A stretch of 64,000 nucleotides of DNA from an uncultured Erysipelotrichaceae bacterium (GCA_902798595.1 CADBXE010000002.1:166741-230740), one strand, 5' to 3'; counted from the stretch's first letter, positions 30,074-50,335 are shown. A program made the numbers and translations. The notes: generated by a model from the sequence alone, not told the origin.

Positions 30074-30125
30074 ACCTCCTATAAACTAGTAGGAGTGCAA
30101 AATGATTTTTTTCCTAAAAAAGTTA
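30074..30125 (-). promoter_or_regulatory. Conserved 52-bp upstream element, copy 1 (before the C39 gene)
   Basis: 47 of 52 positions identical to 50284-50335 by hand alignment; contains a CTCCTA...TAGGAG inverted repeat over the SD. Confidence 0.85.
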
Positions 30126-30142
30126 TATATTTTTGAAAAGAA

Positions 30143-30168
30143 AATAAAAAACCGGATTAATCCGGTTT
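30143..30168 (-). terminator. Terminator after dnaJ
   Basis: AAACCGGAT-TA-ATCCGGTTT hairpin with a U-tract on the minus strand. Confidence 0.8.
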
Positions 30169-31303
30169 ATTTTTTGAAGATTTTTTTGAATTTCGCTAAT
30201 AACGAATCATCTTTGCCAATTTCTTGACGATATTGTGTTAATAGTTCTTTCTGCTTTCTATTTAATGAAGTTGGCATCTTAATATCCAAATGGAGGTATT
30301 GATCACCAGGTCTTCCGCTTCTTAAATCTTTCACGCCTTGACCACGCATCCTGAAGATTTGTCCAGGCTGTGTGCCAGCGGGAATATTAAGTGAAGCTTC
30401 TCCATAGACCGTTGGAACATCAACGCTTGTACCAAGTATCGCATCGATAAAATCAATAGGAACAGTTAAGTGGATGTCATTACCATCTCTTTTAAAGTAT
30501 TGATGTGGCTTGACGTTCACTTCAACGAATAAGTCACCATTAGGACCACCGTTAGCGCCTCTTTCGCCTAAACCTTGAACACGAATTTGTTGCCCGTTAT
30601 TGATACCGGCGATAATGTGAACTTTAATGTTCTTCTTTACACGGTTATAGCCTTTGCCACCGCAGTGTGGGCACGGATTGGTAATAATCTTGCCAGTGCC
30701 GTTACAGCGGGAACATGTTTCTTGTTGTTCGATGACGCCAAAGAGACTTCTTCTTTGTACACGTACAAAGCCATGACCACCACAGTTTGGACAGGTTTGA
30801 ACATCGCTTGGTGATTTAGCACCTGTACCATGGCAAGATGAACACTGTTCATCAACGGTCAAAGGTATTTCAATATCACGGCCTAAGATGGTGTCCATAA
30901 AGTCGACTTTAACACGCATAATTGCGTCGTTGCCTCTTCTTGGACCTGTGCTCGCTCTTTGAGAGCGGCGACCACCACCGAAGAACGATGAGAAGATATC
31001 GCCTAAGTCTACGCCATCCGCACCACCAAAGCCTCCGAATCCACCTTCGAATGGATTTGAACCTGGTTGACCCGCTCCTTGTTCGAAAGCGGCAAAGCCG
31101 AATTGGTCATAGGCACTTCTTTTTTGGTCATCGAAAAGAATGTCATAAGCTTCTTGTACTTCTTTAAACTTTTCCGCATCACCAGTTTCGTGGTTATCAG
31201 GATGGTATTTTTTAGCGAGTTTACGATAAGCACTTTTGATTTCGTCTTTAGACGCGCCTTTCGCGACACCTAAAACTTCGTAAAGATCTCTTTTATTTGC
31301 CAT
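30167..31303 (-). CDS. dnaJ: Chaperone DnaJ
   Basis: J domain HPD, G/F-rich region, four CxxCxGxG repeats. Confidence 0.97.
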
Positions 31304-31378
31304 GATATTCCTTCCTATTCACGCATAGAGGGGCCGAAGCCCCTACTAATGCCTGAAAACATTCTTAATAATTGATTA

Positions 31379-33208
31379 TTAGTTTTTGCTTGTGAAGTCA
31401 GCATCAACGACATCGTCTGGGTTTGTACCAGCGGTACCTTCGTTATTAGCTTGACCATTTGGTTGTGCGCCTTGGTTAGCTTGTGCTTGTTGCATATAAG
31501 CGGCAGCTTGTTCAAGTTCACTAATACGTTTTCTTAAAGTTTCCATATCGTTATTGTCTAACGCGGTCTTTAATTCATCACGTAATTTTTGTGTTTGTTC
31601 TTTTTGGCTTGGATCCATGTTGGCGCCTTTTTCTTGCATAGCGATGTCGATGTCGTTAATTAAGCTTTCAGCTTTATTACGGAGTTCGATTTCTTCTTTA
31701 CGCTTTGCATCTTCTTCAGCGTGAGCTTCGGCTTCCCTAACCATTCTATCGATATCTTCTTTGGAGAGACCGTTACTACCGGAGATGGTAATATTTTGTT
31801 CTTTTTGTGTATCTAAGTCTTTAGCGTTGACTTTAACGATACCATTAACGTCGATAGAGAAGGTAACTTCAATACGTGGTTCACCACGTCTTGCTGGCTT
31901 AATACCATTGAGTTGGAAGTGACCTAATAATTTGTTATCGTGGGCCATTGGTCTTTCACCTTGGTAAACCATGATATCAACGGCTGGTTGGTTATCAGCG
32001 GCTGTGGAGAAGACTTGGCTCTTTGTGGTTGGAATAGTTGTATTTCTTGTGATTAATGGAGTCATGACGCCACCTAAGGTTTCAATACCTAAGGTTAATG
32101 GAGTAACGTCGAGTAAGACTACGTCTTTGACATCACCAGAGACGACACCACCTTGGTAAGCCGCACCAATGGAAACAGCTTCATCTGGGTTGACGGATAA
32201 GTTTGGTTTCTTACCAGTTAATCTAGCCACTAATTCTTGAACGGCTGGCATACGGATGGAACCACCGATTAATAAGACTTGGTTGAGTTCGGAAGCACTC
32301 ATGTGAGCGTCGCTTAAGGCTCTTCTCACTGGTTCTTCACATCTATTTAATAAATGTCTTGTTAAGTCTTGGAATTTAGCACGTGTTAATGTGACTTCGA
32401 AGTTAACTGGACCAGCGGATGTCATGCTAATGAATGGTAAGGAGATAACTGTTTCCATAGAAGCAGAGAGTTCGATTTTCGCTTTTTCAGCAGCTTCTCT
32501 AATTCTTTGTAAGGAACCTTTATCTGTAATATCAACATTGGATTGAATTTTGATTTGGGCCTTGATCCAATCAGCAACGACTTGATCCCAGTCATCACCA
32601 CCGAGGTGGTTATCACCAGCAGTACTCACAACTTCGAATGTACCATCACCGATATCAAGGATGGAAACGTCGAATGTACCACCACCTAAGTCGAAGACTA
32701 AAATCTTTTCGGATTTATCGTTTTCTAAGCCGTAGGCTAAGGCGGCAGCGGTTGGTTCGTTAATAATACGAACGACATCTAAGCCAGCGATTTGACCAGC
32801 GTCTTTTGTCGCTTGTCTTTGGGCATCGTTGAAGTAAGCAGGAACAGTAATAACTGCTTTTTGGACTGATTGACCTAAGTGGGCTTCAGCGTATTTCTTC
32901 ATATAAGCAAGAATCTTTGCGGAGATTTCCTGTGGGGTGAATGATTTGTTCACACATTTAATGTTGACCTTTTCTGCACTACCCATAATTCTTTTAATGG
33001 ATGAGACAGTATCTGGGTTGGTGACAGCTTGTCTTTTCGCAGCGTTACCGACGATTTCTTCACCGTTTGCTTTAAAAGCAACGACGGATGGAGTTGTCAC
33101 TGTACCTTCTGGGTTTGGAATGACTTTGACAGTGCCATCAGCTTGTAAATAACTGACGACTGAGTTTGTGGTACCTAAGTCGATACCTAAGATAATTTCT
33201 TTTGCCAT
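31379..33208 (-). CDS. dnaK: Chaperone DnaK
   Basis: [25 protein letters not shown]. Confidence 0.98.
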
Positions 33209-33224
33209 AATTTATTTCCTCCTA

Positions 33225-33800
33225 TTAAGCGTCTGCTTTGACGCTTTCTTTTGGTTGTTCTTCTTTTTTGTTTTTGCTCACCGAGACTCTTGCAGGTCTA
33301 ATGAGACGTCCGTGTAATTCGTAGCCTTTGGCATACACTCTTGTGACGAGGTTTTCTTCGCCCTCTTGTTCTGTAGTGTCAACGGCATCCATTTTGTCAG
33401 CGGAGAATTTATCTCCCACCTTTGGCGCGTATTCTTTTACACCTTCATTTTCTAACGCACTCACGAAGTTACGATAGATGAATTGGAAACCCACTAAGTA
33501 GTTCTTAACTTCTGGGCTATTTGGTTCGGTTTCTAGCGCCATATGGAAGCTATCGAGTACTGGAAGTAATTCTTCGATAAATCCCATCGCACGATACTTC
33601 ATTGCTTCGGAATGTTCTTTTTCTAAGTTAGTACGTAAGTTCTTGGTATCAGCATAAGCACGGTAGTATTCATTTTTCCAATGATCCACTGCAGCATTTG
33701 CTTTAGCAAGTTCTTCTTCTAATTCTTGAATTCTTTTCTTGTCTTTGTTTTTTTCTTCTTTAACGGCTTCTTTTGCTTCTTGTTTTTCTTTATTAGGCAT
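33225..33800 (-). CDS. grpE: Nucleotide exchange factor GrpE
   Basis: ELLPVLDSF, KGYELHGRLIRPARVSV; operon position. Confidence 0.95.
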   Translation of the reverse strand: MPNKEKQEAKEAVKEEKNKDKKRIQELEEELAKANAAVDHWKNEYYRAYADTKNLRTNLEKEHSEAMKYRAMGFIEELLPVLDSFHMALETEPNSPEVKNYLVGFQFIYRNFVSALENEGVKEYAPKVGDKFSADKMDAVDTTEQEGEENLVTRVYAKGYELHGRLIRPARVSVSKNKKEEQPKESVKADA

Positions 33801-34836
33801 CGCCTTTACCTCCTTTGTTGTTTAATCCCTTAAAGTAATCAGTTAATGTTTCAGCGATGTACTCAAGAGCGCTTAACGCTTGGTCATAGTCGATTCTGGT
33901 TGGACCGAGCAATGTAATTGCGCGGTTTCCTTCTTCGCCAAGATCAATCTTTGCTGTCACCATTGAGACATCAGGATTGCCTTCGATATCACCGATACGA
34001 ATGATTCGGTCTTCGTCATCCTTTTTGATTTCATCTTTGACTTCTTTAAGGAGTTGTTGATCATTGAGAAGTTTGAATACTCTTTCAAGTTTCTCAGTAT
34101 CGTTTTTGTATTCTTCGTGATTGAATAACTCATCTCTACCATAGAGGCTTAAACGGTCACTAGCGAAGCGCATGAATGTTTCAAGCAAAGCTTGGTAAAC
34201 AAGGTCATGGCCGACGATGTAATCGTTAAGGACTGGTTTAAGAGCTTCAGTCTTTTCAACAAGTTCAACGATTGGTGTACCTTTTAATCTGTCATTAAGT
34301 AAGGACACACAGTTGACGATTTCGCCCGCTTTTAAATTTTCAGGAACGATGAAGGTTTTGTTTTCAACATAGCCTTTATCAGTCACGAAGATTGCGGTAA
34401 TTGTGTTATCAGAGATCTGCACCATTTGGATAGAGGCGAGCTTTTCTTTGTTTTCATCTGGACCCATAACGACAGTCACTAAGTTAGTCATATGAGATAA
34501 AATCTCACAACTTTCCTTAATAACCGCATCAATAGATTTGACTTTTTGGTCTAAAACAGTTTGAATGCTGTTCTTTAATTGTTCATTAACAGAACCGTCT
34601 CTAAGCTTTTCGCAGTAGTATCTATATCCTTGAGCGGATGGAACTCTACCACTACTAGAATGGGTCTTTTCGATTAAGCCCATTTTTTCAAGAGCAAACA
34701 TTTCATTTCTAATTGTCGCGGAAGAATAAGGAAGTTTGTATTCTTCGATGAGGGTGTGAGAGCCAACTGGTTGCGCATTCTTAATAAAGTATTCAACGAT
34801 GTATTTTAAAATCGTATCACTACGGTTAAGAGCCAT
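33793..34836 (-). CDS. hrcA: Heat-inducible repressor HrcA
   Basis: PVGS, SSATIRNEM, HSSSGRVPS, LGPTRIDY. Confidence 0.95.
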   Translation of the reverse strand: MALNRSDTILKYIVEYFIKNAQPVGSHTLIEEYKLPYSSATIRNEMFALEKMGLIEKTHSSSGRVPSAQGYRYYCEKLRDGSVNEQLKNSIQTVLDQKVKSIDAVIKESCEILSHMTNLVTVVMGPDENKEKLASIQMVQISDNTITAIFVTDKGYVENKTFIVPENLKAGEIVNCVSLLNDRLKGTPIVELVEKTEALKPVLNDYIVGHDLVYQALLETFMRFASDRLSLYGRDELFNHEEYKNDTEKLERVFKLLNDQQLLKEVKDEIKKDDEDRIIRIGDIEGNPDVSMVTAKIDLGEEGNRAITLLGPTRIDYDQALSALEYIAETLTDYFKGLNNKGGKGDA

Positions 34837-34852
34837 GGTTTTCTCCTCCTTT

Positions 34853-34925
34853 TTAGCACTCTATCTCTTTCTGTGCTAACTACATTTTACTGAATTAATT
34901 AGCACTGTCAAGCAATATCTGCTAA
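34853..34925. promoter_or_regulatory. Two CIRCE elements overlapping the hrcA promoter
   Basis: TTAGCACTC-N9-CTGTGCTAA (34853-34879) and TTAGCACTG-N9-ATCTGCTAA (34899-34925); minus-strand TTGACA (34911-34906), 16 bp, TAAAAT (34889-34884). Confidence 0.9.
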
Positions 34926-34975
34926 TTTTTTAATTTATATTTATATAGAATAAGGATTTATAGGTGAATAGGTAT

Positions 34976-34997
34976 AAAAAAGCGGGAAAACCCGCTC
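34976..34997 (-). terminator. Terminator after hemW
   Basis: AGCGGG-tttt-CCCGCT followed by a U-run on the minus strand. Confidence 0.75.
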
Positions 34998-35018
34998 TGT
35001 TTTAGCCAGTTTTTAGCC

Positions 35019-36083
35019 TTAAATCAGCTGCAAAATGATGGTATCGAGGATCATCATACCCTCATAAGTCGGGCATAATCTATCACCTTGTTTTTCTAGA
35101 TAGCCATCCTTAATCAAAGAGGCAATTTCTTTCTCTTTGTTTTTTAATAGTGACAAGGAGATTCCTTCTTTTGTTCTGAGGTTTAGCATCACTTGATAAG
35201 TGAAGATATCTTTATCAGTTACTTCTTCTTTATCCTGGATATATTCACCTTTTAGGTATTTATCTAAGTTAACTGTGTTTTTATAACGAAGATTACCAAT
35301 ATATCCAGAGGCTCCTAAGCCCACTCCATAGTATTGTTTGTTCCTCCAATATGTGAGGTTGTGTTCGGATTGATAACCCGGTAAACACCAGTTAGAAACT
35401 TCGTAATGTTCGAATCCCTTTTCTTTTAGAAAATTATGGACGATATCATAGTTTTTACGCATCAAATCATCATTCATTTCTCTAAAACCTTGATTGAATA
35501 AAACTGTATGGGGATGAATGGTTAAGGCGTAGCAGGACATATGCTTAACGCCTAAGGATGTGAGATTTTCTAAATCTCTTTTCAAAAGAGTCTCACTACT
35601 ATGCGGTAAGCCAAGAATTAGATCAACGTTAATATTATCGATCTTATTTTCTTTTAAAAGATTAATTGCCTTAACCACGTCTTCATAGCTGTGTTGACGG
35701 TTAATAGCCTTTAAGACTTTTGAATCTGTGCTTTGCACCCCTAAGGAGATGCGATTAACACCATATTGTTTTGAAAGTTTGATTTTGCTTTCACTTAATG
35801 ATTCAGGATTAGCCTCAAAAGTATACTCTTTTACACCTTTGGTATATGGTTTAATAATCTCCAATAGCTCTAAGAACAAATCATCTTCTAAGGCGGTTGG
35901 GGTTCCACCACCGACATAGATAGTTTTAAGTTCCCCAATTTGATATGAAATCAGTTCTTCTTTGAGCTTTTCTAAATATTTAACAGCGAACATACGAAAA
36001 TACTGCAACTTAGTAAAGTCGCAGTAATCGCAAATATTTTCGCAGAAAGGTATGTGAATATATAGAGAAGCTGGTTTATTCAT
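35019..36083 (-). CDS. hemW: Radical SAM heme chaperone HemW (HemN-like)
   Basis: LYIHIPFCENICDYCDF, GGGTPT, YEVSN, HNLTYW; start ATG 36083. Confidence 0.92.
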   Translation of the reverse strand: MNKPASLYIHIPFCENICDYCDFTKLQYFRMFAVKYLEKLKEELISYQIGELKTIYVGGGTPTALEDDLFLELLEIIKPYTKGVKEYTFEANPESLSESKIKLSKQYGVNRISLGVQSTDSKVLKAINRQHSYEDVVKAINLLKENKIDNINVDLILGLPHSSETLLKRDLENLTSLGVKHMSCYALTIHPHTVLFNQGFREMNDDLMRKNYDIVHNFLKEKGFEHYEVSNWCLPGYQSEHNLTYWRNKQYYGVGLGASGYIGNLRYKNTVNLDKYLKGEYIQDKEEVTDKDIFTYQVMLNLRTKEGISLSLLKNKEKEIASLIKDGYLEKQGDRLCPTYEGMMILDTIILQLI

Positions 36084-36291
36084 CTTCCTTATATTTCGCA
36101 ATTTCTTCCGCCGCTTGTTCGTCTTCCACATCTTGGAGGACACGGCTTAATTCGTCTTTAAGAATTTCTTCATCGCTTGGTTTTTCTTCCTTAAGTCTTG
36201 GTCTTAAAATACGATAGATAATGAAAGCCACGATGGCAATAACCGCTGTGACAGCAATAACGATAAGTAATATGAGTAATCCTTCTGGCAT
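36076..36291 (-). CDS. Small single-pass membrane protein, hypothetical
   Basis: AAGGAG SD, N-terminal TM helix, acidic tail; overlaps the hemW start. Confidence 0.7.
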   Translation of the reverse strand: MPEGLLILLIVIAVTAVIAIVAFIIYRILRPRLKEEKPSDEEILKDELSRVLQDVEDEQAAEEIAKYKEDE

Positions 36292-36303
36292 GATAATAGC
36301 TCC

Positions 36304-37794
36304 TTATTCTCTTTCAACTGGAATATAAACGTATTTATTTTTAATCTTTTCTTTGCGATAGTAAAGAAGTTCTGCTAAATGATCCATTGATGTACGAGCG
36401 GTTTCATAGGCACAATGGAGGCTCTTCTTATATTGCGCGATGGTATATTTTTTACCTTTTGTGCAATGTCTAGCATAGAATTTGGCTTCGCCTTTTTTCA
36501 GTTCAGGATCTCTTTCTAAGAGGTCTTGTTCTAGAAGAACAGCTTGCTTTTCATCTAACGCAACAGGAATATAAGCAACAGCAAGTTCTTCTTGCACATA
36601 AGTCACTTTGACAGTCTTTTTCTTTGGTGTTTCAACAGCAACCACTTCCCGTGGTTCTTCACGAGTTTTTTCAACTTGTTGAACTGGTGCTGGAGCGGCT
36701 TCTTCTACTTTTTCTTCCGCTTCTTCGGCGAAGAGATCCATAGTTTCTACTCTTGCTGGCTCTGGAATCTCGACTTCTTGAATTGGTTTTTCTTCATCAA
36801 CTTGATAGAAATCAGCGCGCATTTCTGCGACCTTCGCAGTAGCGATATCATCTAAGAATGTATCGCAGTACTTGCTTAAGTATTTGAAAGCATAATCAAC
36901 GAAATATGTGACGTCAGCAGTCTTTTGTACTTCCACATAAATACGAGCGGCTTCTTCTTTTGGTAAAAGTAAGAGCTTTTCAAATGGAAGCATGACAACA
37001 GAATCACCAAATGCCTCGTGCGCTAATACGGCTTTAGCCATTAAAACGGCCATTTCCTCAGAATAATTAGCGAACGGTTTAACAAAGTTAATATAGAAGA
37101 AAGTAATGGTAGCTTTTAAGGATGTTGGTAATGTGGAGCTGTTAATGAATGTGAATAAACTGTTCATCATAGGTCCAATTAAGTTAACAGGCGCAGATGT
37201 GTATACACGGTCAATAAGGACACGATTTTCTGGATTTCTATCTTCACTTGTACGATAGAAAGTAACCAATTCTTCTGTGCCTAGGAGTTTAGCATAGAGT
37301 TCAGCAAGAAAATCTTCATCAATTGCATTGACATATGCACGCCTAATGTAGTTTAATGCTTGAAGGTAGTTCACCAAAACCATGTTTGTTGGAATTGCGC
37401 TTACTATTTCATTACGCATAACGCTATCGATAAAATCTTCGCCCACGTGTAATTGTTCGAATTCATTCAAGATGTTAAGAACTTCTTTTTTAAAGGTGTA
37501 GTCAACATTCTTAAATTGTTTCGTGTTAGGCGCGAGCATCATGCATTCGCGATTAACTCTAAGAAGTTTGGCTTCTAAGTTATTGACTAAGCTATTGATG
37601 GCTGGACAGCCACAGAACAAGAGCATGTTCTTTTCAATAGTTCTGATTGATAAATAGTGATAAAAATTGGAGCGATATGAAAGAATGTTGCTCCAAAATG
37701 GATCGACTGAAGAGACTTTAAGTTCACGACCAACTTCTAATTTGGTGGCATATTTGTCTTCAGTAAAACGCATCGCATAATCATTGCCTGCCAT
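36304..37794 (-). CDS. Fic-fold protein with degenerate active site and C-terminal winged HTH
   Basis: NYLQAL...ELYAKL...YRT helices; KPFANYSEEMA in place of HPFxDGNGRxxR; C-terminal YTIAQY....CAYETARTSMDHL. Confidence 0.7.
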   Translation of the reverse strand: MAGNDYAMRFTEDKYATKLEVGRELKVSSVDPFWSNILSYRSNFYHYLSIRTIEKNMLLFCGCPAINSLVNNLEAKLLRVNRECMMLAPNTKQFKNVDYTFKKEVLNILNEFEQLHVGEDFIDSVMRNEIVSAIPTNMVLVNYLQALNYIRRAYVNAIDEDFLAELYAKLLGTEELVTFYRTSEDRNPENRVLIDRVYTSAPVNLIGPMMNSLFTFINSSTLPTSLKATITFFYINFVKPFANYSEEMAVLMAKAVLAHEAFGDSVVMLPFEKLLLLPKEEAARIYVEVQKTADVTYFVDYAFKYLSKYCDTFLDDIATAKVAEMRADFYQVDEEKPIQEVEIPEPARVETMDLFAEEAEEKVEEAAPAPVQQVEKTREEPREVVAVETPKKKTVKVTYVQEELAVAYIPVALDEKQAVLLEQDLLERDPELKKGEAKFYARHCTKGKKYTIAQYKKSLHCAYETARTSMDHLAELLYYRKEKIKNKYVYIPVERE

Positions 37795-37878
37795 ATAAAA
37801 GTACCTCTTTATACTTCTATATTACAGGAAGTAGATTTTATTGCAAATAATTTATTCTAAAAAACTACTAATTTTAAA

Positions 37879-39696: not shown

Positions 39697-39698
39697 AT

Positions 39699-40584: not shown

Positions 40585-40608
40585 GGTCATTATCTTAGCA
40601 TTAAATAG

Positions 40609-42939
40609 TTATTTAATAAAGAAATCTTGCAAAATATCACTCACTTCTTTTGGAGAGAATGCGACTTCATATTGTCGCCACTCAGCTTTGAATAAATCGC
40701 GATACTCGTTATTAAGGTACCTTTCATCGATTAATAAAACTGCACCTTTATCAGTTTCACTTCTGATAACTCGACCTAAAGCTTGCATGACTTTATTCAT
40801 GCCTGGATTAAGATAAGCGTAGTTATAACCAGATTGTTCTTTTTTATCGTAATAAGCGGATATTTGATTACTCACAAAATTAATCTTCGGCATACCAATG
40901 CCCACAATTACCGCGCCGATAAGGCGATCACTGACAAGGTCAATACCTTCGCCAAACGCGCCTCCAACAATAACGAACCCTAAGGTTGTTCTTTCCGGAT
41001 TTGGCTTAAAGTTAGCCAAGAAGATTTCCTTATCTTCGTCAGCCATATCCTTTTGTTGTTCGAAAACATCTATACCTTCTAAATCAATATAGGGCATGAG
41101 GTTTGACAAGTACTCGTAGCTTGGCAAGAAAATGAAATAATTACCAACTTTGTTGGAGATAAAACTCTTAATATAATCGGCAACTTTTTGATATGACGTT
41201 CCCCTATTCTTGTATCTAATAGAGACATTAGGGGCGATAATAATCTTAAGATTATTGATTGGGAAAGGCGAAGGAAGAATGAGCTGAGCATCATCTTTCT
41301 TACCGCCGAGCATATCGACGTAGTAGTCAATCGGGGAAAGAGTCGCTGAGAAAAGAACACTACCTCTGAGATTCTTTAAAGAACCCGCAAGAAATGAAGA
41401 TGCATCCAAACACGCTAAATGAATAATTGTGTCATCCTTAGTGATTTGATAGTAGCAGAGGTAATGATTATTGAAGAACTCGAGCATCTTGTTAAAACGG
41501 TTAACACTAAGGTAGAAGTTCAAGAGTTCTTTGGTCATCTCTTTATTTTCGTTTTTATTAACATCTTGCATTGTGGTGATAAACGAAGAGATGGTCTTGT
41601 AGGAATATTCATACAAATCATCTAAAACATGATCGCCTTCTTCACCCACATATTCTTTAAACATCTTATTCATTTTGGACATCGCAAGTTTAAGTTTATG
41701 GAGTTTACTATGGCGTACAGACTTACGCGCCTCTAAGAAATCTTTGTAGGATAACGAAGCGCTGTACATATCTCGGCTTCTATCCACTAAGTTGTGTGCT
41801 TCGTCGACTAAAACAAGATAGGAAGAAGTATCTTCATCAAAATAACGCTTCATATACGAGATTGGATCGAACAGATAGTTATAGTCACAGATAATGACAT
41901 CCATAAATAAAGACAGGTCCAATTCAAATTCGAATGGGCAAATTTGATTCTCATACGCTATTTGGTTAATAGTGTTTAAATCAAAGTCATCATATGTTAA
42001 AAGACAGTATCTTAAAACCGTTTGGATTTTATCATAATAATGCTTGGTATATGGACATTCTTCTGGATTACAAGCCGAGCCTTTGCAAAAGCAGACTTTA
42101 TCTTTTGCAGTAATGATAATATCACTTAGTGATAAGCCACTGTCTTTCAAGACTTTAATTGCGTTATGAGCAGCTTCTTTGCCGCTTGTTTTAGCGGTTA
42201 GATAGAAAACTTTACTATTCTCATCATCTCTTATCGCTTTAATAAATGGAAACAAGGTGGACATAGTTTTACCAATGCCTGTAGGTGCTTCTACAAACAA
42301 ACGTCCACGCTTCTTCGTAATGGCATAAGCGTATTTAGCGAGTTCCCTTTGTCCCTGACGATAATTTTTGAATGGGAATTTGAGCTTATCAATGCTCTCA
42401 TCTCTTTTCTTGTTTTTATTAAAAATGATGTTGTAAAACGCCAGATATTCATTAAGAAGTTTAACGACAAACTGCTCTAATTCTAAAATGTTAAAATGAT
42501 AGGAATCGATGAGTTGTTCTTTTTCTTTTCCTTGTCTAATGTAAGTTAACTTGATACCGATATAATCAAGTTTTGTGAGCTTTGCGAACATGTAGGCATA
42601 ACACTTCGCTTGCCCTAAATGCCATTCAAGATTATCATCGTGAAATATCTTGAGATCTTCCACTGTTGTCTTAATTTCATCAATCACATATTCGGTTTCG
42701 CTTCTTTTGATAATGCCATCCGCTCTACCTTCTAAAACGATATTCACTTCATCGATGTTGAAAGACATCTTTAAAGGAAATTCAGACATGTAGTTTGAAG
42801 ATTGTTTGGATTGATATGCGCTATGGAGACGACTTCCTTCTGCCATTGATGAACGATTAAAAACACGATTATCGATATCGCCTGTTCTTAATAAAAAGTC
42901 CACCAATTGGTGTACGCTAAGAGTTAAGTATTTCTCCAT
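40609..42939 (-). CDS. DinG/XPD-family Fe-S helicase with N-terminal PD-(D/E)XK nuclease domain
   Basis: GRADGII...IDEIKT...QAKCY; APTGIGKT; Cys cluster; VDEAHNL; FSATL; QALGRVIRS. Confidence 0.88.
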   Translation of the reverse strand: MEKYLTLSVHQLVDFLLRTGDIDNRVFNRSSMAEGSRLHSAYQSKQSSNYMSEFPLKMSFNIDEVNIVLEGRADGIIKRSETEYVIDEIKTTVEDLKIFHDDNLEWHLGQAKCYAYMFAKLTKLDYIGIKLTYIRQGKEKEQLIDSYHFNILELEQFVVKLLNEYLAFYNIIFNKNKKRDESIDKLKFPFKNYRQGQRELAKYAYAITKKRGRLFVEAPTGIGKTMSTLFPFIKAIRDDENSKVFYLTAKTSGKEAAHNAIKVLKDSGLSLSDIIITAKDKVCFCKGSACNPEECPYTKHYYDKIQTVLRYCLLTYDDFDLNTINQIAYENQICPFEFELDLSLFMDVIICDYNYLFDPISYMKRYFDEDTSSYLVLVDEAHNLVDRSRDMYSASLSYKDFLEARKSVRHSKLHKLKLAMSKMNKMFKEYVGEEGDHVLDDLYEYSYKTISSFITTMQDVNKNENKEMTKELLNFYLSVNRFNKMLEFFNNHYLCYYQITKDDTIIHLACLDASSFLAGSLKNLRGSVLFSATLSPIDYYVDMLGGKKDDAQLILPSPFPINNLKIIIAPNVSIRYKNRGTSYQKVADYIKSFISNKVGNYFIFLPSYEYLSNLMPYIDLEGIDVFEQQKDMADEDKEIFLANFKPNPERTTLGFVIVGGAFGEGIDLVSDRLIGAVIVGIGMPKINFVSNQISAYYDKKEQSGYNYAYLNPGMNKVMQALGRVIRSETDKGAVLLIDERYLNNEYRDLFKAEWRQYEVAFSPKEVSDILQDFFIK

Positions 42940-43877
42940 TAGTCAAATTTCGCGCCTAAAAGGTTCTGATTACCATTGATAAAGGAACGGTAGTCCATTC
43001 TCTTCTTACCTTCTTTTTGTAGTTCTAAAATGGCTAATTGGCCATCTTTTAATTGCACTAGTAAGGCGTGTTTATCCGCTTGGACAATTGTGCCCACTGG
43101 AGCGGTGGCTAAATTATTAGCCATTTTGGCTTTAAAGATTTTAATCTTTTGATTGTTTAAATACAGATAAGCACCTGGCTCATCGCTCAAGCCTCTAATC
43201 CAACCATAAATTTGTTCTAAGTTCATGTTTAAATCAAGCTTTTCTTGTTCAGGCTTAATTAAAGAACAGAATGTCACTTCGTTTTCATTTTGTTCTTCGC
43301 CCTTAAGTTCACCATTTATATATAAAGGTAATAGTTCAATCGCTAATTCTTTGGCGGCATCTCTTATCTTATTAAATAAAGAGGTAGAGTTATCATCTTC
43401 AGTGATAACAACTTCTTTCTTACCAAACATTCTACCAGCGTCCATTGCTTTAACCATTTCCATCAGAGTCACACCAGTGACTTTTTCATTATTAATTAAA
43501 GCAGTTTGGATTGGAGAAGCACCTCTTAACTTAGGAAGTAAGGAACCATGGAGGTTTAAGCAGCCTAAACGAGGAATATCTAAAAAACCTTGAGGAACGA
43601 TTTGTCCATAGGCAAGAGTAATAACTAAATCAACTTTGAGATTATCCATAAAGGAATAATCAGCACGGATTTTCACAGGTTGAAAGACCGGAATGTTGTA
43701 TTTTTCTGCAACTAACTTAGTTGGCACTTTCTCAATAATGCCTTTACGGCCCACAGGGTGATCTGGTTGACAAACAAGGCCCACAAAGTGATAACCATCG
43801 AGTATTAACGCTTCAAAGACATCAGCGCTGATTGAGGGAGTACCCATAAATAAGAGATTAATATCTTTCTTTTCCAT
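42939..43877 (-). CDS. fmt: Methionyl-tRNA formyltransferase
   Basis: FMGTP, QPD..VGR, NLHGSLLPKLRGASPI, MDAG. Confidence 0.96.
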   Translation of the reverse strand: MEKKDINLLFMGTPSISADVFEALILDGYHFVGLVCQPDHPVGRKGIIEKVPTKLVAEKYNIPVFQPVKIRADYSFMDNLKVDLVITLAYGQIVPQGFLDIPRLGCLNLHGSLLPKLRGASPIQTALINNEKVTGVTLMEMVKAMDAGRMFGKKEVVITEDDNSTSLFNKIRDAAKELAIELLPLYINGELKGEEQNENEVTFCSLIKPEQEKLDLNMNLEQIYGWIRGLSDEPGAYLYLNNQKIKIFKAKMANNLATAPVGTIVQADKHALLVQLKDGQLAILELQKEGKKRMDYRSFINGNQNLLGAKFD

Positions 43878-43924
43878 ATGGAAATATTATACAAAACGAC
43901 GCATTTTTTTGCTACTATATGAAC

Positions 43925-44362
43925 ATGAAAATTTTATTAGTCAGTGATTCGCATAGTGATTATGCTTCTTTAGACCGTTTAGCGGCGATGTATCCAGAGA
44001 TGGACTTATACTTGCACGCAGGCGATAGTGAACAGGATGAGTGGTCGATCAAGCCCTTTATCTCTGTTAGAGGCAACTGCGACCACTACTATGACTTCCC
44101 AATTTTCTTAATAATTCCTTCGCCATATGGAAATATTTTTGTCCAACACCTCCCTTTTATTTCAAAAAGTGTCATTGCTGAACATAACGCAAAGATTGTC
44201 ATACATGGCCACACACATACTCGTAGAAATGAAATGAAGAATGGTATATTATATGTAAATCCGGGAGCAATCAGCTATGCCCGGGATAAGTTTGATGGCA
44301 GTTACGCCATCCTCGATATTGAAAGCAATCATGTAGACATTAAATTCTACACGTTAAAATAA
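43925..44362 (+). CDS. YfcE/YsnB family metallophosphoesterase
   Basis: SDSH, HAGD, VRGNCD, HGHTH, NPG; start probably ATG 43925. Confidence 0.9.
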   Translation: MKILLVSDSHSDYASLDRLAAMYPEMDLYLHAGDSEQDEWSIKPFISVRGNCDHYYDFPIFLIIPSPYGNIFVQHLPFISKSVIAEHNAKIVIHGHTHTRRNEMKNGILYVNPGAISYARDKFDGSYAILDIESNHVDIKFYTLK

Positions 44363-44372
44363 AGGAACTCAT

Positions 44373-46352
44373 ATGAAAATCAACAAAGACTTAATCGCCC
44401 AATACGTTCAGGGCGCAGCGGCTTTACTTAAGACTTCTCGCCGTTTTAGCAACATCTATCAACAAATGATGAATCAAAACAAAAAGAGAGTCTACGCCGA
44501 ATTTTTCAATTTGAACAACAGAATTAAAAGCTATAAATATAGCAAGATGGATGAAAACGTTAAAAAATACGCCCTTTATCTATCTAATAAGATTAAAAAG
44601 GAAGGCACAAATCGTGTCATTTTAAAGGTAGCAAACTCTCCAACATGGGGTGAATTATTCTGGGCCTTATTAATGGCTGGCTTTGTTCCAATGTTGGTGG
44701 ACGCTAAATTACCAAGAGAAAATGTTATTAATTTAGGCAATCAAGGCAAAGCCATTGCTATTATTAGCGATGATAATAACGAATATTCACTTAACAAAGT
44801 TAGAGTGGATAATATCCTACAAAACTCAAAAGAACCAATGACAAATCCTTCTTGGGCGGATGAAGTTTTGTTCTCTTCTAGTGGCACAACTGGTGATGCA
44901 AAACTCATGGTTTTCAACGGTGAAAACTTTGTCAATCAAGTGTGCTGCTCGTTAGATATGCCAAATGAAAGTTTGACCATTATGTATCCTAAGAAAGTTG
45001 GCAAAATTAAGATCTTAGCGATGATTCCATTTCACCATATCTTTGGCTTTGTCGCCGTTTTCTTGTGGTACACATTCTATGGCACAACTTTAGTCTTCCC
45101 AAAGAGCAATACTCCAACTGATTTATTATCAATTTGCCAAAAAACAGGCATTACTCACGTCTATAGTGTCCCATTATTCTGGGATTCACTAGCATTGTCT
45201 ATCAAGCGTAAATTTGCTTTGCAAAGCCCTGAAAAACAAAAGCTTTTAGAAAAGATGATGGCTTATAACTTAGGCGAAATGAGCGCCGAAGAAGCTGGTT
45301 TCGCTAGCAAAAAGATTGTTAGTGATAAAGTCAAAGGCAACATCTTAGGCAAACATGTTAAATACTGTATCTCTGGTGGCGGTTATCTCTCTAACGAAAC
45401 CTTAAGAGCGGTTAACGGCTTAGGGTATCCTCTCTATAATGGTTATGGTATGACCGAAATCGGTGTTACTTCCGTTGAACTTTCTCCAGATGTTAAACAA
45501 AGATTATTAGGCTATATCGGTAAACCACTCCATGGTGTGGAATACAAAGTCAGCGAAGAGAACAACGAACTCTTAGTGAAATCTCCTACAATTCATATTA
45601 GAGAAATTATCGCTGGCGTGGAAAAAGAAACAGTTTTAGATAACGGTTACTTCCATACAGGCGACATCGTTAATAAAGAAGCCACTGGTTATGTGATGAA
45701 GGGCAGAATGAAAGACGTCATCATCAACGCTAATGGCGAAAATATCTTCCCAGATGAACTTGAAATCTACTTCAAAGATTTACCAAGTGTCACTAACTTA
45801 TCCGTCTTAGGCGTCATCAACAAAGACAAAGCCTTACGCGAAGACATTGTCTTAGTCTTAGAACTCGATGACAAGACCGACGAAGCTACACTTAAAGAAA
45901 TCGAAGATACTGTGAAGAGTATAAAACTTCCTCATGACACAAAGATTGACGCTATCTACTTAGCAAAGAACCGTTTGCCTATGGCAAATAACATGAAAGT
46001 TAAGAGATTCGCCATCAAGAAAGAAATTGAGAATGGTTCTAATAAGTATGTCTTAATTAACCAAAAGAAAGTGTCTTCCAAAGTGAGAAAGTTCTCCAAA
46101 GAAACATTAGAAAACGTTCTTCCAAAAGTGAGAGCCTTATTCTCCAAAATCTTAGTCCTTCCAGCCTTTAAGATTGACGATGAAGATCACTGGATCAATG
46201 ACTTAGGTGGTGACTCCATGAACTATGTTGAATTAGTCCAAGAAATGGACAGAGAATTCGACATCGAAGTTCCTGAAGAACAATATGGTAAACTCACCTG
46301 CGTTAACGATTTCGTGGAAGAAATCGCTCGTATCTTAAAAGAAAAGAAATAA
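44373..46352 (+). CDS. Adenylate-forming acyl ligase fused to a C-terminal acyl carrier protein
   Basis: SSGTTGDAK, GYGMTE, YFHTGD, GRMKD..NGENIFP, MKVKR; ACP motif DLGGDSMNYVEL. Confidence 0.88.
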   Translation: MKINKDLIAQYVQGAAALLKTSRRFSNIYQQMMNQNKKRVYAEFFNLNNRIKSYKYSKMDENVKKYALYLSNKIKKEGTNRVILKVANSPTWGELFWALLMAGFVPMLVDAKLPRENVINLGNQGKAIAIISDDNNEYSLNKVRVDNILQNSKEPMTNPSWADEVLFSSSGTTGDAKLMVFNGENFVNQVCCSLDMPNESLTIMYPKKVGKIKILAMIPFHHIFGFVAVFLWYTFYGTTLVFPKSNTPTDLLSICQKTGITHVYSVPLFWDSLALSIKRKFALQSPEKQKLLEKMMAYNLGEMSAEEAGFASKKIVSDKVKGNILGKHVKYCISGGGYLSNETLRAVNGLGYPLYNGYGMTEIGVTSVELSPDVKQRLLGYIGKPLHGVEYKVSEENNELLVKSPTIHIREIIAGVEKETVLDNGYFHTGDIVNKEATGYVMKGRMKDVIINANGENIFPDELEIYFKDLPSVTNLSVLGVINKDKALREDIVLVLELDDKTDEATLKEIEDTVKSIKLPHDTKIDAIYLAKNRLPMANNMKVKRFAIKKEIENGSNKYVLINQKKVSSKVRKFSKETLENVLPKVRALFSKILVLPAFKIDDEDHWINDLGGDSMNYVELVQEMDREFDIEVPEEQYGKLTCVNDFVEEIARILKEKK

Positions 46353-46415
46353 ATAATTGCATTATTTGCCGAATTTTGTTAAGATTACACTCGGCACTAG
46401 AAAAGAGGTAACTTT

Positions 46416-46679
46416 ATGGCTAACATAAAATCACAAATCAAACGTATCAAAACCAACGAAAAAGCTCGTCAAAGAAATGCATCCGCCAAAAGCGCTATCC
46501 GTACTTCTATTAAGAAAGTCAAATTAGCCGTTGAAGCGAAAGATTTAGCTAAGGCCGAAGAATTAATGAATGCGGCTTTCCGTTTAATTGATAAATCCGT
46601 GAGTGATGGTATTCAACACAAGAATACTGCTGCAAGACAAAAAGGCGAACTTTCTCGCTTAGTCAACACACTCAGATAA
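46416..46679 (+). CDS. rpsT: 30S ribosomal protein S20
   Basis: MANIKSQIKR...HKNTAAR. Confidence 0.97.
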   Translation: MANIKSQIKRIKTNEKARQRNASAKSAIRTSIKKVKLAVEAKDLAKAEELMNAAFRLIDKSVSDGIQHKNTAARQKGELSRLVNTLR

Positions 46680-47660
46680 TTACTTTCTCTTGAAATTAAT
46701 TAAGAACAGTTCGAAACTGTAATAGCGGTCCACAAGACCGCTTTTAATTTGCCAGTCTAACTGATATAAGTCTTCTAAAGTTTGTAATATACGTTTGCCA
46801 GAGATTACAAAACTATTCTTTCTAAGAATCTTAGCTCTAATAGGATTAATGCTTAATTCCTTAGCGATATCATCTGGCCCATAACTATGTCTCGCAAGAT
46901 ATGAGACTCTATTTAATAATCTAAATTGATTAGCAATCATGCTAATTAAAGTCACGGGTTCAACATTGCTGCTCTTAAGGTCACGGAACAACGCGACAGC
47001 GTCCATGTTTCTTTCATCCACTAAATAGTTATAAAGCATGAAGGCATTTTCTTCTAAAGGACGAGTAACCATCATAGTGACATCACTAAAAGTGATGTGA
47101 TTAGTGTATAACGCTAATTTACTACCATTATTGAATAAGGAAGCATAATCACCTTCAGTTCTTCTAGCGAGTTCATTAACTGCGTCACTATCAATAACAG
47201 TGTCAGGCCACTTTTCAGAGAAGTAATGTTTCACAACATCATTCCACTGCTCTTGTTTTGGTTCAGTAAGGACCACTATTTGGCCATTCTTTTCAATTAA
47301 TTGGTTTATTTCGCTCTTCTTATCTAAATCACTTTCACTAGTGTTCACTAAAAAGATCAAATCACAATCTGGGTTTGGGTTAGCTAAATAATTCTTTAAT
47401 GATTCGTAATCTTGTTCGCTTTCGATTTTGTTTCTGCCCTTTTCCTTTAATAAGAAATAAGGAGTATCAACGATGACCGCTTTGGAATCGTAGCCTAAAG
47501 GCATGTAGTTAGCCTCACTAACGATTTCTTGAATTGGGGTCATTGTCGCATCAAACTTCACGAAATTCATCGCATCCATCTCTTTAAGGGACTTCTTAAC
47601 GATGCTTTTCATTTGGCTCTTTAAACGAATGTTTTGCTTGCCACTGATAAGATAAATCAT
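46680..47660 (-). CDS. holA: DNA polymerase III delta subunit
   Basis: MIYLISG, P....K.VIV, D.QIKSG; comEC-holA/rpsT synteny. Confidence 0.9.
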   Translation of the reverse strand: MIYLISGKQNIRLKSQMKSIVKKSLKEMDAMNFVKFDATMTPIQEIVSEANYMPLGYDSKAVIVDTPYFLLKEKGRNKIESEQDYESLKNYLANPNPDCDLIFLVNTSESDLDKKSEINQLIEKNGQIVVLTEPKQEQWNDVVKHYFSEKWPDTVIDSDAVNELARRTEGDYASLFNNGSKLALYTNHITFSDVTMMVTRPLEENAFMLYNYLVDERNMDAVALFRDLKSSNVEPVTLISMIANQFRLLNRVSYLARHSYGPDDIAKELSINPIRAKILRKNSFVISGKRILQTLEDLYQLDWQIKSGLVDRYYSFELFLINFKRK

Positions 47661-47721
47661 GAAATCATTATAAAATATTTTATATTTTGTAACTAGATAA
47701 TCTTTAAAAAGTCGTCATTAG

Positions 47722-49731
47722 TTAAATGGCAAACTCTTTATATGTAATCGTTCCTTCAATATCCGTTCTTCTAATTTCGATATTGTGTCTATTTAACGTA
47801 GTCACGACACTTTTAGAAGGATGACCAAATTTATTGTTCTTGCCACAAGAGACAATCGCAGTTTTTGGATGCATATAAGTAATGAACTCATCACACGATG
47901 ATGTGTCGGAGCCATGATGGCCCACTTTTAAGATATCGCAAGGAATTGATTCATAATCTCTGATTATCTTCTTCTCCACCCAGCTAGGAGCGTCACCCAT
48001 AACGACAAAGTCTTTGTTAAGAATATGGAAAGAAAGCACTAAGGAACGATCGTTTTCTTCGTTACTCGTTGTTCCATATGTGTTGTAGTTATTGAATGTA
48101 AGATGACCAACACTAATTGGGAAAGAGGAATAATAGTCATAAACATGGTCTACTCGATATTCCTTTTGTAAGTTTTCTAACGCTCCATAATGGTCATAGT
48201 CATAATGGGTGATGAATACACTATCGATTTTATAAATCCGTTTCTTTCTTAAATAAGGAATAAGATTGTTATTAGCGACGTCGCTATAAGTTAAGCCACC
48301 TGTATCAATCATAATGACTTTATCGTGCTCTCTAATTAAAGTGCAGTCTCCTTGGCCGACATTAACAAAAGACACTTCGTTTGTTAACCTATTGTTTAGC
48401 GGAATTGCGTGCACTAGAGCGATACTAATGAGTCCAATAGATAAACCTCTTTCAATCTGTCTAAAACCAAGGGATAAATAATATAAATACACCACATAGA
48501 TAAAATAGTAAATTAGAAGCACTATCTCTGGTAGATCAGGAAGATATGGTCCGAAAGATAAACTCTTAATTCCAGTAATATATCCTCTTAGTAAAAAAAT
48601 GAATAGTTTATCAAAAGCGTATATCGGTAACCTAAAGAAGCAAAGCAAAGATGTCACACCAATCAATAAGAATAAAGGTGTTGAAATTATCTGAAGAGGA
48701 AACGCAAAAATTACCATTTTATGGTAATAAGCAATTTCAAAAGGAATAAAGAATAGGTATATCGTTAACGCTTTAAAGAAATAAGCCCGATATTTATTAT
48801 CGATGTATATATCCTTAATTAAATAAGAAACAATCGGAATCATAAAACCCAGAATAAAGCTATCTTGGTACGCTAAAAAGTGATCAAACAGCAAACACAA
48901 TATACCCGCCAGTGAGATAACTTCCAGATAAGTAAACTTCTTTTTAAGTGGGTATTTATTTATCCATTTTAATAGCAAAAGAAAAACTACACGTATAACG
49001 CTAAATTTTGGTATCGTAAATACCATATAAATTGCTAGAAGCGAGATAGTTATTAGCTCAGCATGTTTATCCTTCAAAAACAAACCTAATAGATAATTTA
49101 GTATAAGCGCGAATAAGCCTACATAAAACCCACTCGCCGATAGAAACCTAGATAAATGTAGATTGCTAATGCGGTTGCTTGTTTCGCTTTCTTCTCCATC
49201 AGAAAAGAGAATCGATCCAACTATCGCTCTTTCTTCTTTATTAAAATGACTAAGTGCTTTATTCCTTGCTTCGTTAATCCTTATGAAGTTACGCCACTTA
49301 ACATTGATATGCTTTGCGTTCAACGAATGAAAGACACCCTTGTTATTCAAATATTCTTTAAAATCAAATCCTGATTCTAATGTGGCGAAATCTAATTCTT
49401 CCTTTTTGCCTTCAATAGAAATGTAATCGCCCAAATCATAAGTGTGACCTTTGGAATAAACGTAGAGTCTTTCACCTCCACTGTTTAGGAGGAAGTAGTT
49501 TTCTTTTGCAGTATATACAAAACCTGAATAAGTTGTCTTGCTATATGAGATATTGACAAAAGAAAGACCAAAGCCTAGAACTACCCCTCCCAAGGAGATA
49601 AATAAAGGTATCAGCTTGAACCTTTTATATATAAAGAGAAGAAATATAGCGGTCACTAATAAAAGTATAAATATAGACCTAGTAAGAACGTTACCTAGAT
49701 AAAAACCAATAAAGAAAAGGAAAATAATCAC
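47722..49731 (-). CDS. comEC: DNA uptake channel ComEC (competence plus MBL domains)
   Basis: FDFKEYL, multiple TM segments, VGQGDC, IDTGG, THYDYDH, KVGHHGS, NKFGHP. Confidence 0.92.
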   Translation of the reverse strand: MIIFLFFIGFYLGNVLTRSIFILLLVTAIFLLFIYKRFKLIPLFISLGGVVLGFGLSFVNISYSKTTYSGFVYTAKENYFLLNSGGERLYVYSKGHTYDLGDYISIEGKKEELDFATLESGFDFKEYLNNKGVFHSLNAKHINVKWRNFIRINEARNKALSHFNKEERAIVGSILFSDGEESETSNRISNLHLSRFLSASGFYVGLFALILNYLLGLFLKDKHAELITISLLAIYMVFTIPKFSVIRVVFLLLLKWINKYPLKKKFTYLEVISLAGILCLLFDHFLAYQDSFILGFMIPIVSYLIKDIYIDNKYRAYFFKALTIYLFFIPFEIAYYHKMVIFAFPLQIISTPLFLLIGVTSLLCFFRLPIYAFDKLFIFLLRGYITGIKSLSFGPYLPDLPEIVLLIYYFIYVVYLYYLSLGFRQIERGLSIGLISIALVHAIPLNNRLTNEVSFVNVGQGDCTLIREHDKVIMIDTGGLTYSDVANNNLIPYLRKKRIYKIDSVFITHYDYDHYGALENLQKEYRVDHVYDYYSSFPISVGHLTFNNYNTYGTTSNEENDRSLVLSFHILNKDFVVMGDAPSWVEKKIIRDYESIPCDILKVGHHGSDTSSCDEFITYMHPKTAIVSCGKNNKFGHPSKSVVTTLNRHNIEIRRTDIEGTITYKEFAI

Positions 49732-50273
49732 TGATGAAGAATGACGTAATTACGAACCTTGTGATAGGTCGCGTTGCCAATGCCGTAAACGTTCAATAAG
49801 TCCTCAACGGTATTAAAAATACCGTTTTCGGTACGATAAGAGACAATTGAACTAGCAATGGATGTGGTAATACCAGTTACGCTCATCAATGTTTGAGCGT
49901 CATCTTGGTTGATGTTTACTTTGCTGATTTCGCTCTTTGAACAAATATCGTTTTCATCAAACTTGCTAGCAATGTAATAAGTTGTGCCCGCTTTTAATTT
50001 AGCGGTCTCGTAGAACGCTAATTCATCTGCGTTAGCGGTTGTTCCACCTGCGGCCTCTAATAAGTCATGCATGGTTATTCCATCGCTTAGAACATATGTT
50101 CCTGCTTTGTAAACCTCGCCTTCAATCGTGTACTTACTACCGTTTTGGTTCGACACTTCGGTGATGTTATTGCTATTCGCAGTTCCTACTGGATTTAAAT
50201 CTGGATCAATGACTAAAAAACCAATGATGACGATGAAAGCCACAACCGTCACGCCAATTAAAATTTTTAACAT
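49728..50273 (-). CDS. comEA: DNA receptor ComEA
   Basis: N-terminal TM, SLBB (GEV..AGTY...AAGG), HhH region (KVNIN...DLLNVYGIG). Confidence 0.9.
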   Translation of the reverse strand: MLKILIGVTVVAFIVIIGFLVIDPDLNPVGTANSNNITEVSNQNGSKYTIEGEVYKAGTYVLSDGITMHDLLEAAGGTTANADELAFYETAKLKAGTTYYIASKFDENDICSKSEISKVNINQDDAQTLMSVTGITTSIASSIVSYRTENGIFNTVEDLLNVYGIGNATYHKVRNYVILHQ

Positions 50274-50283
50274 AAAAAATAAA

Positions 50284-50335
50284 ACCTCCTATAAATAAGT
50301 AGGAGGTCAAATTGATTTTTTTCCTAAAAAAGTTA
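50284..50335 (-). promoter_or_regulatory. Conserved 52-bp upstream element, copy 2 (before comEA); its hairpin may also terminate greA
   Basis: Minus strand TAACTTTTTTAGGAAAAAAATCAATTTGACCTCCTACTTATTTATAGGAGGT, followed by TTTATTTTTT-ATG. Confidence 0.85.

Follow-up and report, generated by a model that had tools for sequence, protein, structure and literature searches.

The DNA analyzed here is a stretch of 64,000 nucleotides (hereafter the window; G000:C2:166741-230740) from G000, the source assembly of an uncultured Erysipelotrichaceae bacterium (1.37 Mb, 25 contigs, 36.6% G+C, 77% complete). The minus strand of the window carries two copies of an element, termed here the com-box, one upstream of comEA-comEC and the other upstream of a gene for a C39 peptidase protein, and 12 such boxes were found in the assembly as a whole. 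On balance we regard the com-box as the probable promoter of a competence and recombination regulon, read by an alternative sigma factor and nested with a hairpin that would act as a terminator and bury the Shine-Dalgarno (SD) sequence of the next gene. The parts of the two window copies and the genes around them are given below.

50345..50818, minus strand: greA, co-directional with and upstream of the comEA box (GreA_GreB_N 1.3e-26, GreA_GreB 5.9e-22)
50320..50335, minus strand: T-run and -35-like element of the comEA box, TAACTTTTTTAGGAAA (AGGAAA at 50325..50320), identical in both window copies
50296..50301, minus strand: -10-like TACTTA (TAYTWR) of the comEA box, 18 nt past AGGAAA, at the fixed spacing
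50283..50308, minus strand: comEA hairpin, GACCTCCTA, loop CTTATTTA, TAGGAGGTT (9 pairs, -12.6 kcal/mol, z -5.4); the 3' arm contains the comEA SD
50274..50282, minus strand: T-tract TTATTTTTT, after the hairpin and before the comEA ATG (50273)
49728-50273, minus strand: comEA (Pfam HHH_3 1.2e-18, SLBB 1.6e-7)
47722-49731, minus strand: comEC, in the operon served by the comEA box (Competence 1.6e-10, Lactamase_B 7.2e-16)
46680-47660, minus strand: holA, DNA polymerase III delta, after comEA-comEC
30149..30168, minus strand: intrinsic terminator of dnaJ, terminator-like with 8 pairs and a T-run
30110..30125, minus strand: T-run and -35-like element of the C39 box (AGGAAA at 30115..30110)
30086..30091, minus strand: -10-like TACTAG of the C39 box, at the fixed position shared by the other copies
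30074..30097, minus strand: C39 hairpin, CTCCTA, loop CTAGTTTA, TAGGAG plus outer pairs (-8.8 kcal/mol); the SD forms the 3' arm, with no T-tract behind it
28854..30068, minus strand: 404-aa protein that has a C39 peptidase domain at its N terminus (Peptidase_C39 2.2e-14) and a membrane part, lacking an ABC ATPase domain

Read on the minus strand, positions 30125..30074 and 50335..50284 were identical at 47 of 52 positions, and a repeat search lengthened the pair to 63 nt with 87% identity (30070-30132 and 50280-50342). The first 23 bases of the element occurred exactly twice in the window and in none of 100 dinucleotide-preserving shuffles. Both copies terminate in the SD of the next gene, TAGGAGG(T), with the ATG 5 or 10 bases on: TAGGAGGT is followed by GTTAA-ATG at 30068 for the 404-aa C39-peptidase protein, and TAGGAGGT by TTTATTTTTT-ATG at 50273 for ComEA. 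The pairing of CTCCTA with TAGGAG is present in both, and folding with ViennaRNA gave the energies listed above. The comEA hairpin, with a T-tract behind it and 10 nt past the greA stop, was terminator-like in a consensus scan and was classed as a rho-independent terminator; the C39 copy, having no T-tract, was not. The match at 47 of 52 positions, the SD at the end of each copy, the CTCCTA-TAGGAG pairing and the T-tract behind the comEA hairpin had already been described in a sequence-only reading of the window and were confirmed, as was the claim that no SigA-type hexamer pair is present, since no sigma-70-type pair overlapping either window box was found in the consensus scan. A search of the full 64 kb (1-64000) gave no Rfam family at or above its gathering score. 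The greA gene ends 19 nt before the AGGA of the comEA box and has no terminator of its own. The gene upstream of the C39 box was confirmed as dnaJ, and its terminator lies 51 nt upstream of that box; because dnaJ is terminated in this way, the C39 box needs no T-tract.

Boxes were located in G000 by a fuzzy search and then by a position weight matrix (PWM) scan. Eleven boxes scored 43-57 bits in the scan and a 12th scored 28 bits; the matches that followed reached 17 and 13 bits, and the maximum in a reversed-genome control was 10.8 bits. The layout of the box is a T-run, AGGAAAAAAATCA, N11 ending in CC, TAYTWR(TTWA), a loop and TAG(G/A)(A/G)GG, which is typically TAGGAGG. The AGGA core, TTAGGAAAA, is invariant in 12/12 boxes. 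Counted from the A of AGGA, TAYT starts at +25 in every one of the 11 high-scoring copies, and the purine-rich 3' arm shifts by 1 nt, so that the rigid spacing is one between promoter-like parts and not between hairpin arms. The -35 (AGGAAA) and -10 (near CCTACT) proposed in the sequence-only reading fit this single strictly fixed spacing of the element. All 12 boxes are intergenic and each is oriented toward the next gene, and at least six of them precede canonical uptake or recombination genes. The genes found behind the boxes are the following.

recA (2e-137)
dprA (9e-61), then topA
comEA-comEC (in the window)
a 122-aa protein, then a ComFA-type Zn-ribbon ResIII/DEAD helicase
a 60-aa membrane peptide, then radC (RadC 9e-26)
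G000:C7:28096-28419, minus strand: a 107-aa MG284/MPN403-family protein, first gene of a pilus-like operon
the C39 peptidase protein (in the window)
two MacB-like ABC proteins
small proteins of 98, 64 and 37 aa
G000:C3:26521-28499: a 626-aa ASCH and PIN-like protein and a 125-aa ASCH protein, behind the weaker 12th box (28 bits)

The sequence-only reading had expected a genome scan to find boxes before comG, comF, dprA, ssbB and recA. This was borne out for recA, dprA and a comFA-like gene. Canonical comG genes were not seen, and their place is taken by the operon led by the 107-aa gene, whose T2SSE ATPase (2e-23) is the sole such gene in the assembly and is TadA/VirB11-like, matching ComGA at only 2.9e-17. 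After the 107-aa gene this operon encodes a lipoprotein, the TadA/VirB11-like ATPase, two membrane proteins and a 55-aa pilin-like peptide. The tie to ssb is uncertain, the 37-aa box gene lying 450 nt ahead of rpsF-ssb-rpsR. No box was seen before ruvAB in the 77% of the genome that G000 represents.

The box was conserved in relatives of the same genus, as had been anticipated for comEA: it was kept in 23/23 genus upstream regions of comEA, in 21/21 of those read for dprA, in 21/21 of those read for the C39 gene, and in 18/18 genus genomes where the MG284-family gene was found. The relatives identified through RecA were uncultured Bacilli, Bacillales or Erysipelotrichaceae metagenome-assembled genomes, several of them from rumen, goat, buffalo or horse-faeces samples. 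The -35-like part reads TTAGGAAAA in G000 and four relatives and T(C/T)GGACAAA in most others, and is aberrant in G007; the two types, AGGAAAA and GGACAAA, are accompanied by a -10-like part that stays CCTAYT. Over 27 nt of -35 and spacer, boxes of different genes within one genome share 77% identity, whereas orthologous boxes across the two -35 groups share 57% and non-orthologous pairs 56%. The boxes therefore evolve in concert within a genome, spacer included. The sequences point to concerted evolution or to a long protein footprint. In the relative G004, four boxes are near-identical over the 27 nt and the orthologous boxes of other genomes differ from them.

In other families of the order, the exact 15-mer gave chance matches only, with no -10 or hairpin part. 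With a relaxed bipartite regular expression, 11 of the 79 named relatives showed a box ahead of recA, as against 0/79 reversed controls. The region upstream of dprA was also folded for 29 genera of the order outside this one: the SD lay in a predicted 3' arm in 21 and the fold reached -8 kcal/mol or stronger in 19, and several of these regions carry TTAGGA-like upstream elements. The hairpin-SD architecture is spread more widely than the box motif.

The hairpin was then considered with regard to its gene context. Folding energies of -8.8 kcal/mol or stronger were obtained for ten of the 12 boxes, against a mean of -4.8 kcal/mol for 376 control genes of G000 with a strong SD, 13.8% of which reach -8 kcal/mol. 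Hairpin and T-run together have the look of an intrinsic terminator in 8/12 boxes; all eight follow a co-directional open reading frame (ORF) that ends 4-36 nt before AGGA, and seven of these eight ORFs lack a separate terminator. The four boxes lacking a T-run are the C39 box (behind the dnaJ terminator), the recA box (with a weak stem, -2.3 kcal/mol) and two whose upstream gene is divergent. The SD was predicted to lie in the 3' arm of a fold of -8.8 kcal/mol or stronger in 7/9 boxes that directly precede a start codon. Among distinct genus sequences, hairpins of -8 kcal/mol or stronger and T5 runs were found, respectively, in 19/20 and 20/20 for comEA, 16/19 and 18/19 for dprA, 16/18 and 0/18 for C39, 7/16 and 3/16 for the MG284 gene, and 0/11 and 4/11 for recA, so that the pattern is gene-specific and conserved across the genus. 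Because the T-run tracks the presence of a co-directional gene ending just upstream, the hairpin is most likely both the terminator of that neighbour and an SD lock. Three boxes keep the purine arm and T-run with the next start codon 80-450 nt away, and the arm is therefore not kept solely as an SD.

A candidate for the protein that reads the box was found at G000:C20:3995-4615, where a gene for a 206-aa protein lies after rlmB (SpoU_methylase 7e-44) and downstream of cysS, at the conserved sigH position of Bacillota. In the relative G005, which is 95% complete and has boxes, a single weak sigma match lies directly after an rlmB-type methylase (TIGR02937 5e-8, below the cut-off), and the G000 protein is 33.5% identical to this counterpart (tblastn E 5e-35). 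The gene is present in 23/23 genus genomes, in agreement with the earlier expectation of a SigH, ComX or ECF candidate, and is fast-evolving: the G000 and G003 proteins are 66% identical, compared with 98% for ComEA of these two genomes. A profile of 18 orthologs gave weak matches to region 2 of solved sigma factors. In a Foldseek search with the AlphaFold2 model (predicted local distance difference test score, pLDDT, 77.5) a model of SigH from B. subtilis was the best match (E 2.9e-5), with sigma chains and RNA polymerase holoenzyme entries making up the rest of the matches listed. This 206-aa SigH-like protein is most likely the reader of the box.

The interval from the rlmB stop to the SD of the SigH-like gene (G000:C20:4616-4645) contains a small hairpin, as does the corresponding interval in G001, G003 and G008. 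The arms of this hairpin vary yet stay complementary, being CCATC/GATGG in G000 and of the ACAC(C)/(G)GTGT type in the three others. In S. aureus an SD-sequestering inverted repeat precedes sigH itself, according to passages of PMC3486894, and by analogy the hairpin described here may control expression of the sigma factor.

The other sigma factors of G000 are SigA and five paralogous ECF-like sigmas. The latter were set aside as readers of the box because they are missing from the 95%-complete G005, which still has boxes. Their genes (C1:153764, C6:34358, C16:1703, C16:29867 and C3:10133-10627) are each followed by a gene for a large membrane protein of 208-790 aa. No ComK match was found in G000, itself 77% complete.

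We propose the following mechanism for the com-box as the competence promoter of an uncultured rumen or gut lineage of Bacilli/Erysipelotrichales. The alternative sigma factor would recognize the -35-like AGGAAA and the -10-like TAYTWR 18 nt downstream. The C-rich stretch that just precedes and overlaps the -10 would pair with the TAGGAGG that serves as SD, and, where a co-directional gene ends just upstream, the hairpin with its T-tract would be the intrinsic terminator of that gene. Transcripts that read through from the upstream gene would hold both arms, and their SD would be paired and buried. Transcripts initiated at the box, we infer, would begin about 7 nt past the -10, in the loop or the first purines of the 3' arm; since a start inside the hairpin leaves out the 5' arm and places the SD at the 5' end, such mRNA would be translatable. 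The recA gene, needing housekeeping expression, would go without the lock. The promoter and regulon part of the sequence-only reading is thus largely borne out. The gating part is plausible as judged from sequence: its terminator half is strengthened by the dependence on gene context, and covariation in the stem is weak.

Several observations weigh against this proposal. RNAalifold returned no consensus pair for a MAFFT alignment of 45 box sequences, because indels shift the arms in that alignment. When the sequences were placed in a fixed register, 76.7% of cells were paired compared with 75.8% in shuffles, and 133/500 shuffles reached the observed value; the covariation score of the stem was reached by 30/500. 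Most of the pairing could merely reflect two conserved motifs, the C-rich stretch before the -10 and the SD. An arm-swap test alone spoke for the native arms: these folded at -11.5 kcal/mol and chimeric ones at -10.4, a gain of 1.2, and 0/5000 permutations reached the native value. The RNA evidence consists of assembled (Logan) contigs of five RNA runs and of two runs of unstated type; four of these, compared with the recA locus, yielded fragmentary contigs, which do not resolve 5' ends and in which gaps in coverage carry no meaning. One metatranscriptome contig of 151 nt covers the whole recA box with zero mismatches, and read-through RNA or contaminating DNA must therefore exist there; this is compatible with the weak recA hairpin and is silent on the start site. 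As to the reader, the G000 sigma candidate matched no Pfam or NCBIfam sigma model and has no com-box before its gene, and the conservation of the spacer within a genome is unexplained by the recognition of two hexamers alone.

Two further points of this kind arise from the comparison with known SigH/ComX late-competence promoters of Bacillota, such as the SigH com promoters of Listeria and Staphylococcus and the streptococcal cin-box. In those systems, as here, one short box stands directly before comE, dprA, recA, radC, comF and the pilus operon, and a dedicated, poorly conserved sigma factor (here a candidate) is encoded at the rlmB-sigH position. The Listeria SigH promoters of com genes, as given in PMC4754846, have the -35 AAAGGAWTT, GAAGGACTT, and so have the AGGA core in common with the com-box. 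The SigH -10, GNNGAAT about 11-12 nt after the -35 nonamer, is however absent from the boxes, in which TAYTWR lies about 6 nt further on, and the streptococcal cin-box TACGAATA, noted earlier as missing from the window copies, occurred in 0/12 boxes, the nearest sequence being TACTTATT (5/8). The com-box also differs in its spacer, conserved within each genome, in the hairpin fused to it with the SD and often a T-tract, and in serving a TadA/VirB11-like pilus operon in place of comG. By function and by the position of the sigma gene the com-box is a SigH/ComX-type late-competence promoter, one that lacks both the GAAT of the SigH -10 and the cin-box.

Of the other explanations, an unlikely one is that the main reader is a DNA-binding activator working with SigA or the SigH-like factor, the best candidate being the 107-aa MG284/MPN403-family protein in contact with the -35 and spacer. 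Its gene heads a box-driven operon, which would give a positive feedback loop, and the box precedes it wherever in the genus the gene was found; the homogenised -35 and whole spacer also suggest a footprint longer than a hexamer. The protein matched NF045770 (1.1e-16, 60.5 bits; cut-off 37.3) and, weakly, the ArpU family, and among its atlas neighbours are DUF1492 and DUF722, families of late regulators from phages. Of the structural matches to its AlphaFold2 model (pLDDT 84), the best seven were sigma region-4 domains at Z 5.5-6.5, which, being below 8, is the range of common helical arrangements and a lead only, and Foldseek with the same model found nothing at E 0.001 or better. Word-index homology searches yielded nothing but unnamed proteins similar in size. 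RrlA and RrlB of M. genitalium, small accessory proteins that sigma-20 induces, are required for sigma-20 activity (PMC6105099).

Against this reading, the -10 of SigA requires a T at its last position, and TAYTWR has no T there. Moreover, the 107-aa protein was not found in 5/23 genus genomes, one of them 95% complete, all of which have boxes, whereas the sigma candidate is present at full length in all 23. Recognition-helix residues compared by eye with the -35 type do not discriminate between the two candidate readers, because both change in G007, where the -35 is aberrant. A complex prediction for the sigma candidate with the 107-aa protein scored 0.00 and gives no answer either way.

It is about equally improbable that the promoter is real and the hairpin has no gating role, an upstream terminator having been squeezed onto the SD in a compact genome and the complementarity elsewhere arising incidentally from a strong SD and an extended -10 rich in C. 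The tracking of the T-run with a co-directional upstream gene, the near-equal folding of chimeric arms, the shuffles that match the observed pairing and the lack of a covarying pair in RNAalifold are all in keeping with such an origin. It does not account for the C39 box, which retains a hairpin of the strength given above in 16/18 genus sequences despite the dnaJ terminator and with no T-run, nor for the three boxes in which the purine arm is too distant from a start codon to be an SD; and the recA boxes indicate that the promoter needs no CCTCC arm.

We consider it very unlikely that the element is an attenuator, with a start upstream of the hairpin, a stop at the T-tract and a competence-specific antiterminator, RNA-binding or Q-like, that lets polymerase pass. 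Eight of the 12 hairpins do resemble intrinsic terminators, and the phage antiterminator-Q family is among the weak atlas neighbours of the 107-aa protein (27% share). The conserved sequence, however, starts only at the T-run before AGGA, and the ORFs upstream, which stop 4-36 nt short of it, have no other sequence in common, so that a conserved promoter ahead of the hairpin is lacking. The T-tract is missing from four boxes, of which two also have weak stems, and the strict distance is from AGGA to TAYT and not from AGGA to the stem. A dispersed repeat of the repetitive extragenic palindromic (REP) or miniature inverted-repeat transposable element (MITE) kind, or a 'mobile promoter' lacking a specific link to competence, would explain the high identity of non-homologous loci and the homogenised boxes, and is hardly credible when every copy is intergenic and aimed at the next gene, often one for uptake or recombination, when the same genes carry the box in 18-23 genus genomes and when no copy at a random place exceeds 17 bits.

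The proposed sigma-dependent com-box was also compared with the sigma-20 system of mycoplasmas. Sigma-20 promoters are given in PMC4446450 as TTGTCA-N18/19-ATTWAT (M. genitalium) and TTGGCR-N18/19-ATTYAT (M. pneumoniae). The boxes described here bear some likeness to these in their long spacer and ATTWAT-like -10: TTAGGA (TTGGAC or TCGGAC in relatives) is separated from AYTWRT by 19-21 nt, the exact length varying with where the hexamers are placed. At +26..+31 the AYTWRT reads ATTTAT in 3/12 boxes (recA, the 64-aa gene and the comFA box), ACTTAT in 3/12 and AYTAGT in 6/12. The regulon of sigma-20 (MG428/MPN626) comprises recA, ruvAB, rrlA/B, MG_285/286, MG_389/390, MG_414, MG_010 and MG_412, MG_390 being a C39-type 'sunT' exporter gene (PMC6105099). 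A recA gene and a gene for a C39 protein occur in both sets, and MG_285/286 are numbered beside MG_284, whose family has a box-driven member here. The 404-aa C39 protein itself matched the mycoplasma family of peptidase-domain ABC transporters weakly (3.2e-7, far under the cut-off). Starts near the start codon and small induced accessory proteins (both predicted in our case) are further likenesses. Unlike the sigma-20 regulon, the one described here has a full uptake set (comEA/EC, dprA, a comFA-like gene and a pilus-like operon), and the hexamers differ.

From these parallels we put forward, tentatively and as something that could well prove wrong, that the box, the sigma at the SigH position and the MG284-family region-4-like protein are the full, uptake-competent version of a system that survives as the Mycoplasma sigma-20 regulon. 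Sigma-20 would then be a relic of sigma-H/ComX competence, the spacer would be read by the MG284-family factor, and each competence promoter of the lineage would be built into a terminator and anti-SD hairpin that keeps the uptake genes silent in transcription as well as translation unless the sigma factor fires. The word 'competence' is absent from both sigma-20 papers (PMC4446450, PMC6105099), and no literature linking MG428 to competence was found among the matches listed. These parallels make the origin and nature of sigma-20-driven gene transfer directly testable.

The proposed escape of box-initiated transcripts has a counterpart in IS10. As reportedly described by Davis, Simons and Kleckner in 1985, transcription from the promoter of the element itself begins within the repeat, and the resulting RNA escapes. 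In fold-back inhibition of IS10/Tn10, cited in PMC13181058, the inverted repeat buries the translation signals of outside transcripts. By analogy the com-box would follow the same logic, here on a chromosomal regulon of 12 promoters, eight of them with an intrinsic terminator. The design would be a compact one, a promoter nested in the terminator of its neighbour and in a hairpin that buries the SD.

Only a few cultured Bacillota have had their competence regulation worked out in detail, and full-text searches for such work in Erysipelotrichales, or in the rumen and gut Bacilli related to them, found no literature. The box supplies a map of a regulon of 12 promoters for such an organism, and the candidate master sigma could, if expressed, switch on transformation in gut organisms that are hard to handle.

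Some of the genes behind boxes were less readily placed. The pairing of ASCH/PIN proteins with a competence box has no obvious explanation. In the close relative G003, extra boxes lie before a gene for a 250-aa protein with no family match (G003:C4:~3400-4172) and before a gene for a 67-aa protein that resembles a BrnA-type antitoxin by eye only (G003:C8:4861-5250). Because this close relative has extra boxes, membership of the regulon changes by gain and loss from one species to another. A family of very basic small proteins (98-128 aa) that are box-driven and have an NPNP-like motif was seen at G000:C9:34000-34296 and C17:12031-12399 and on G008:C36 and G008:C160; this family matched nothing in Pfam or NCBIfam. 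The 98-aa member of G000 and the unrelated 64-aa box gene both lie just upstream of apparent rRNA operons.

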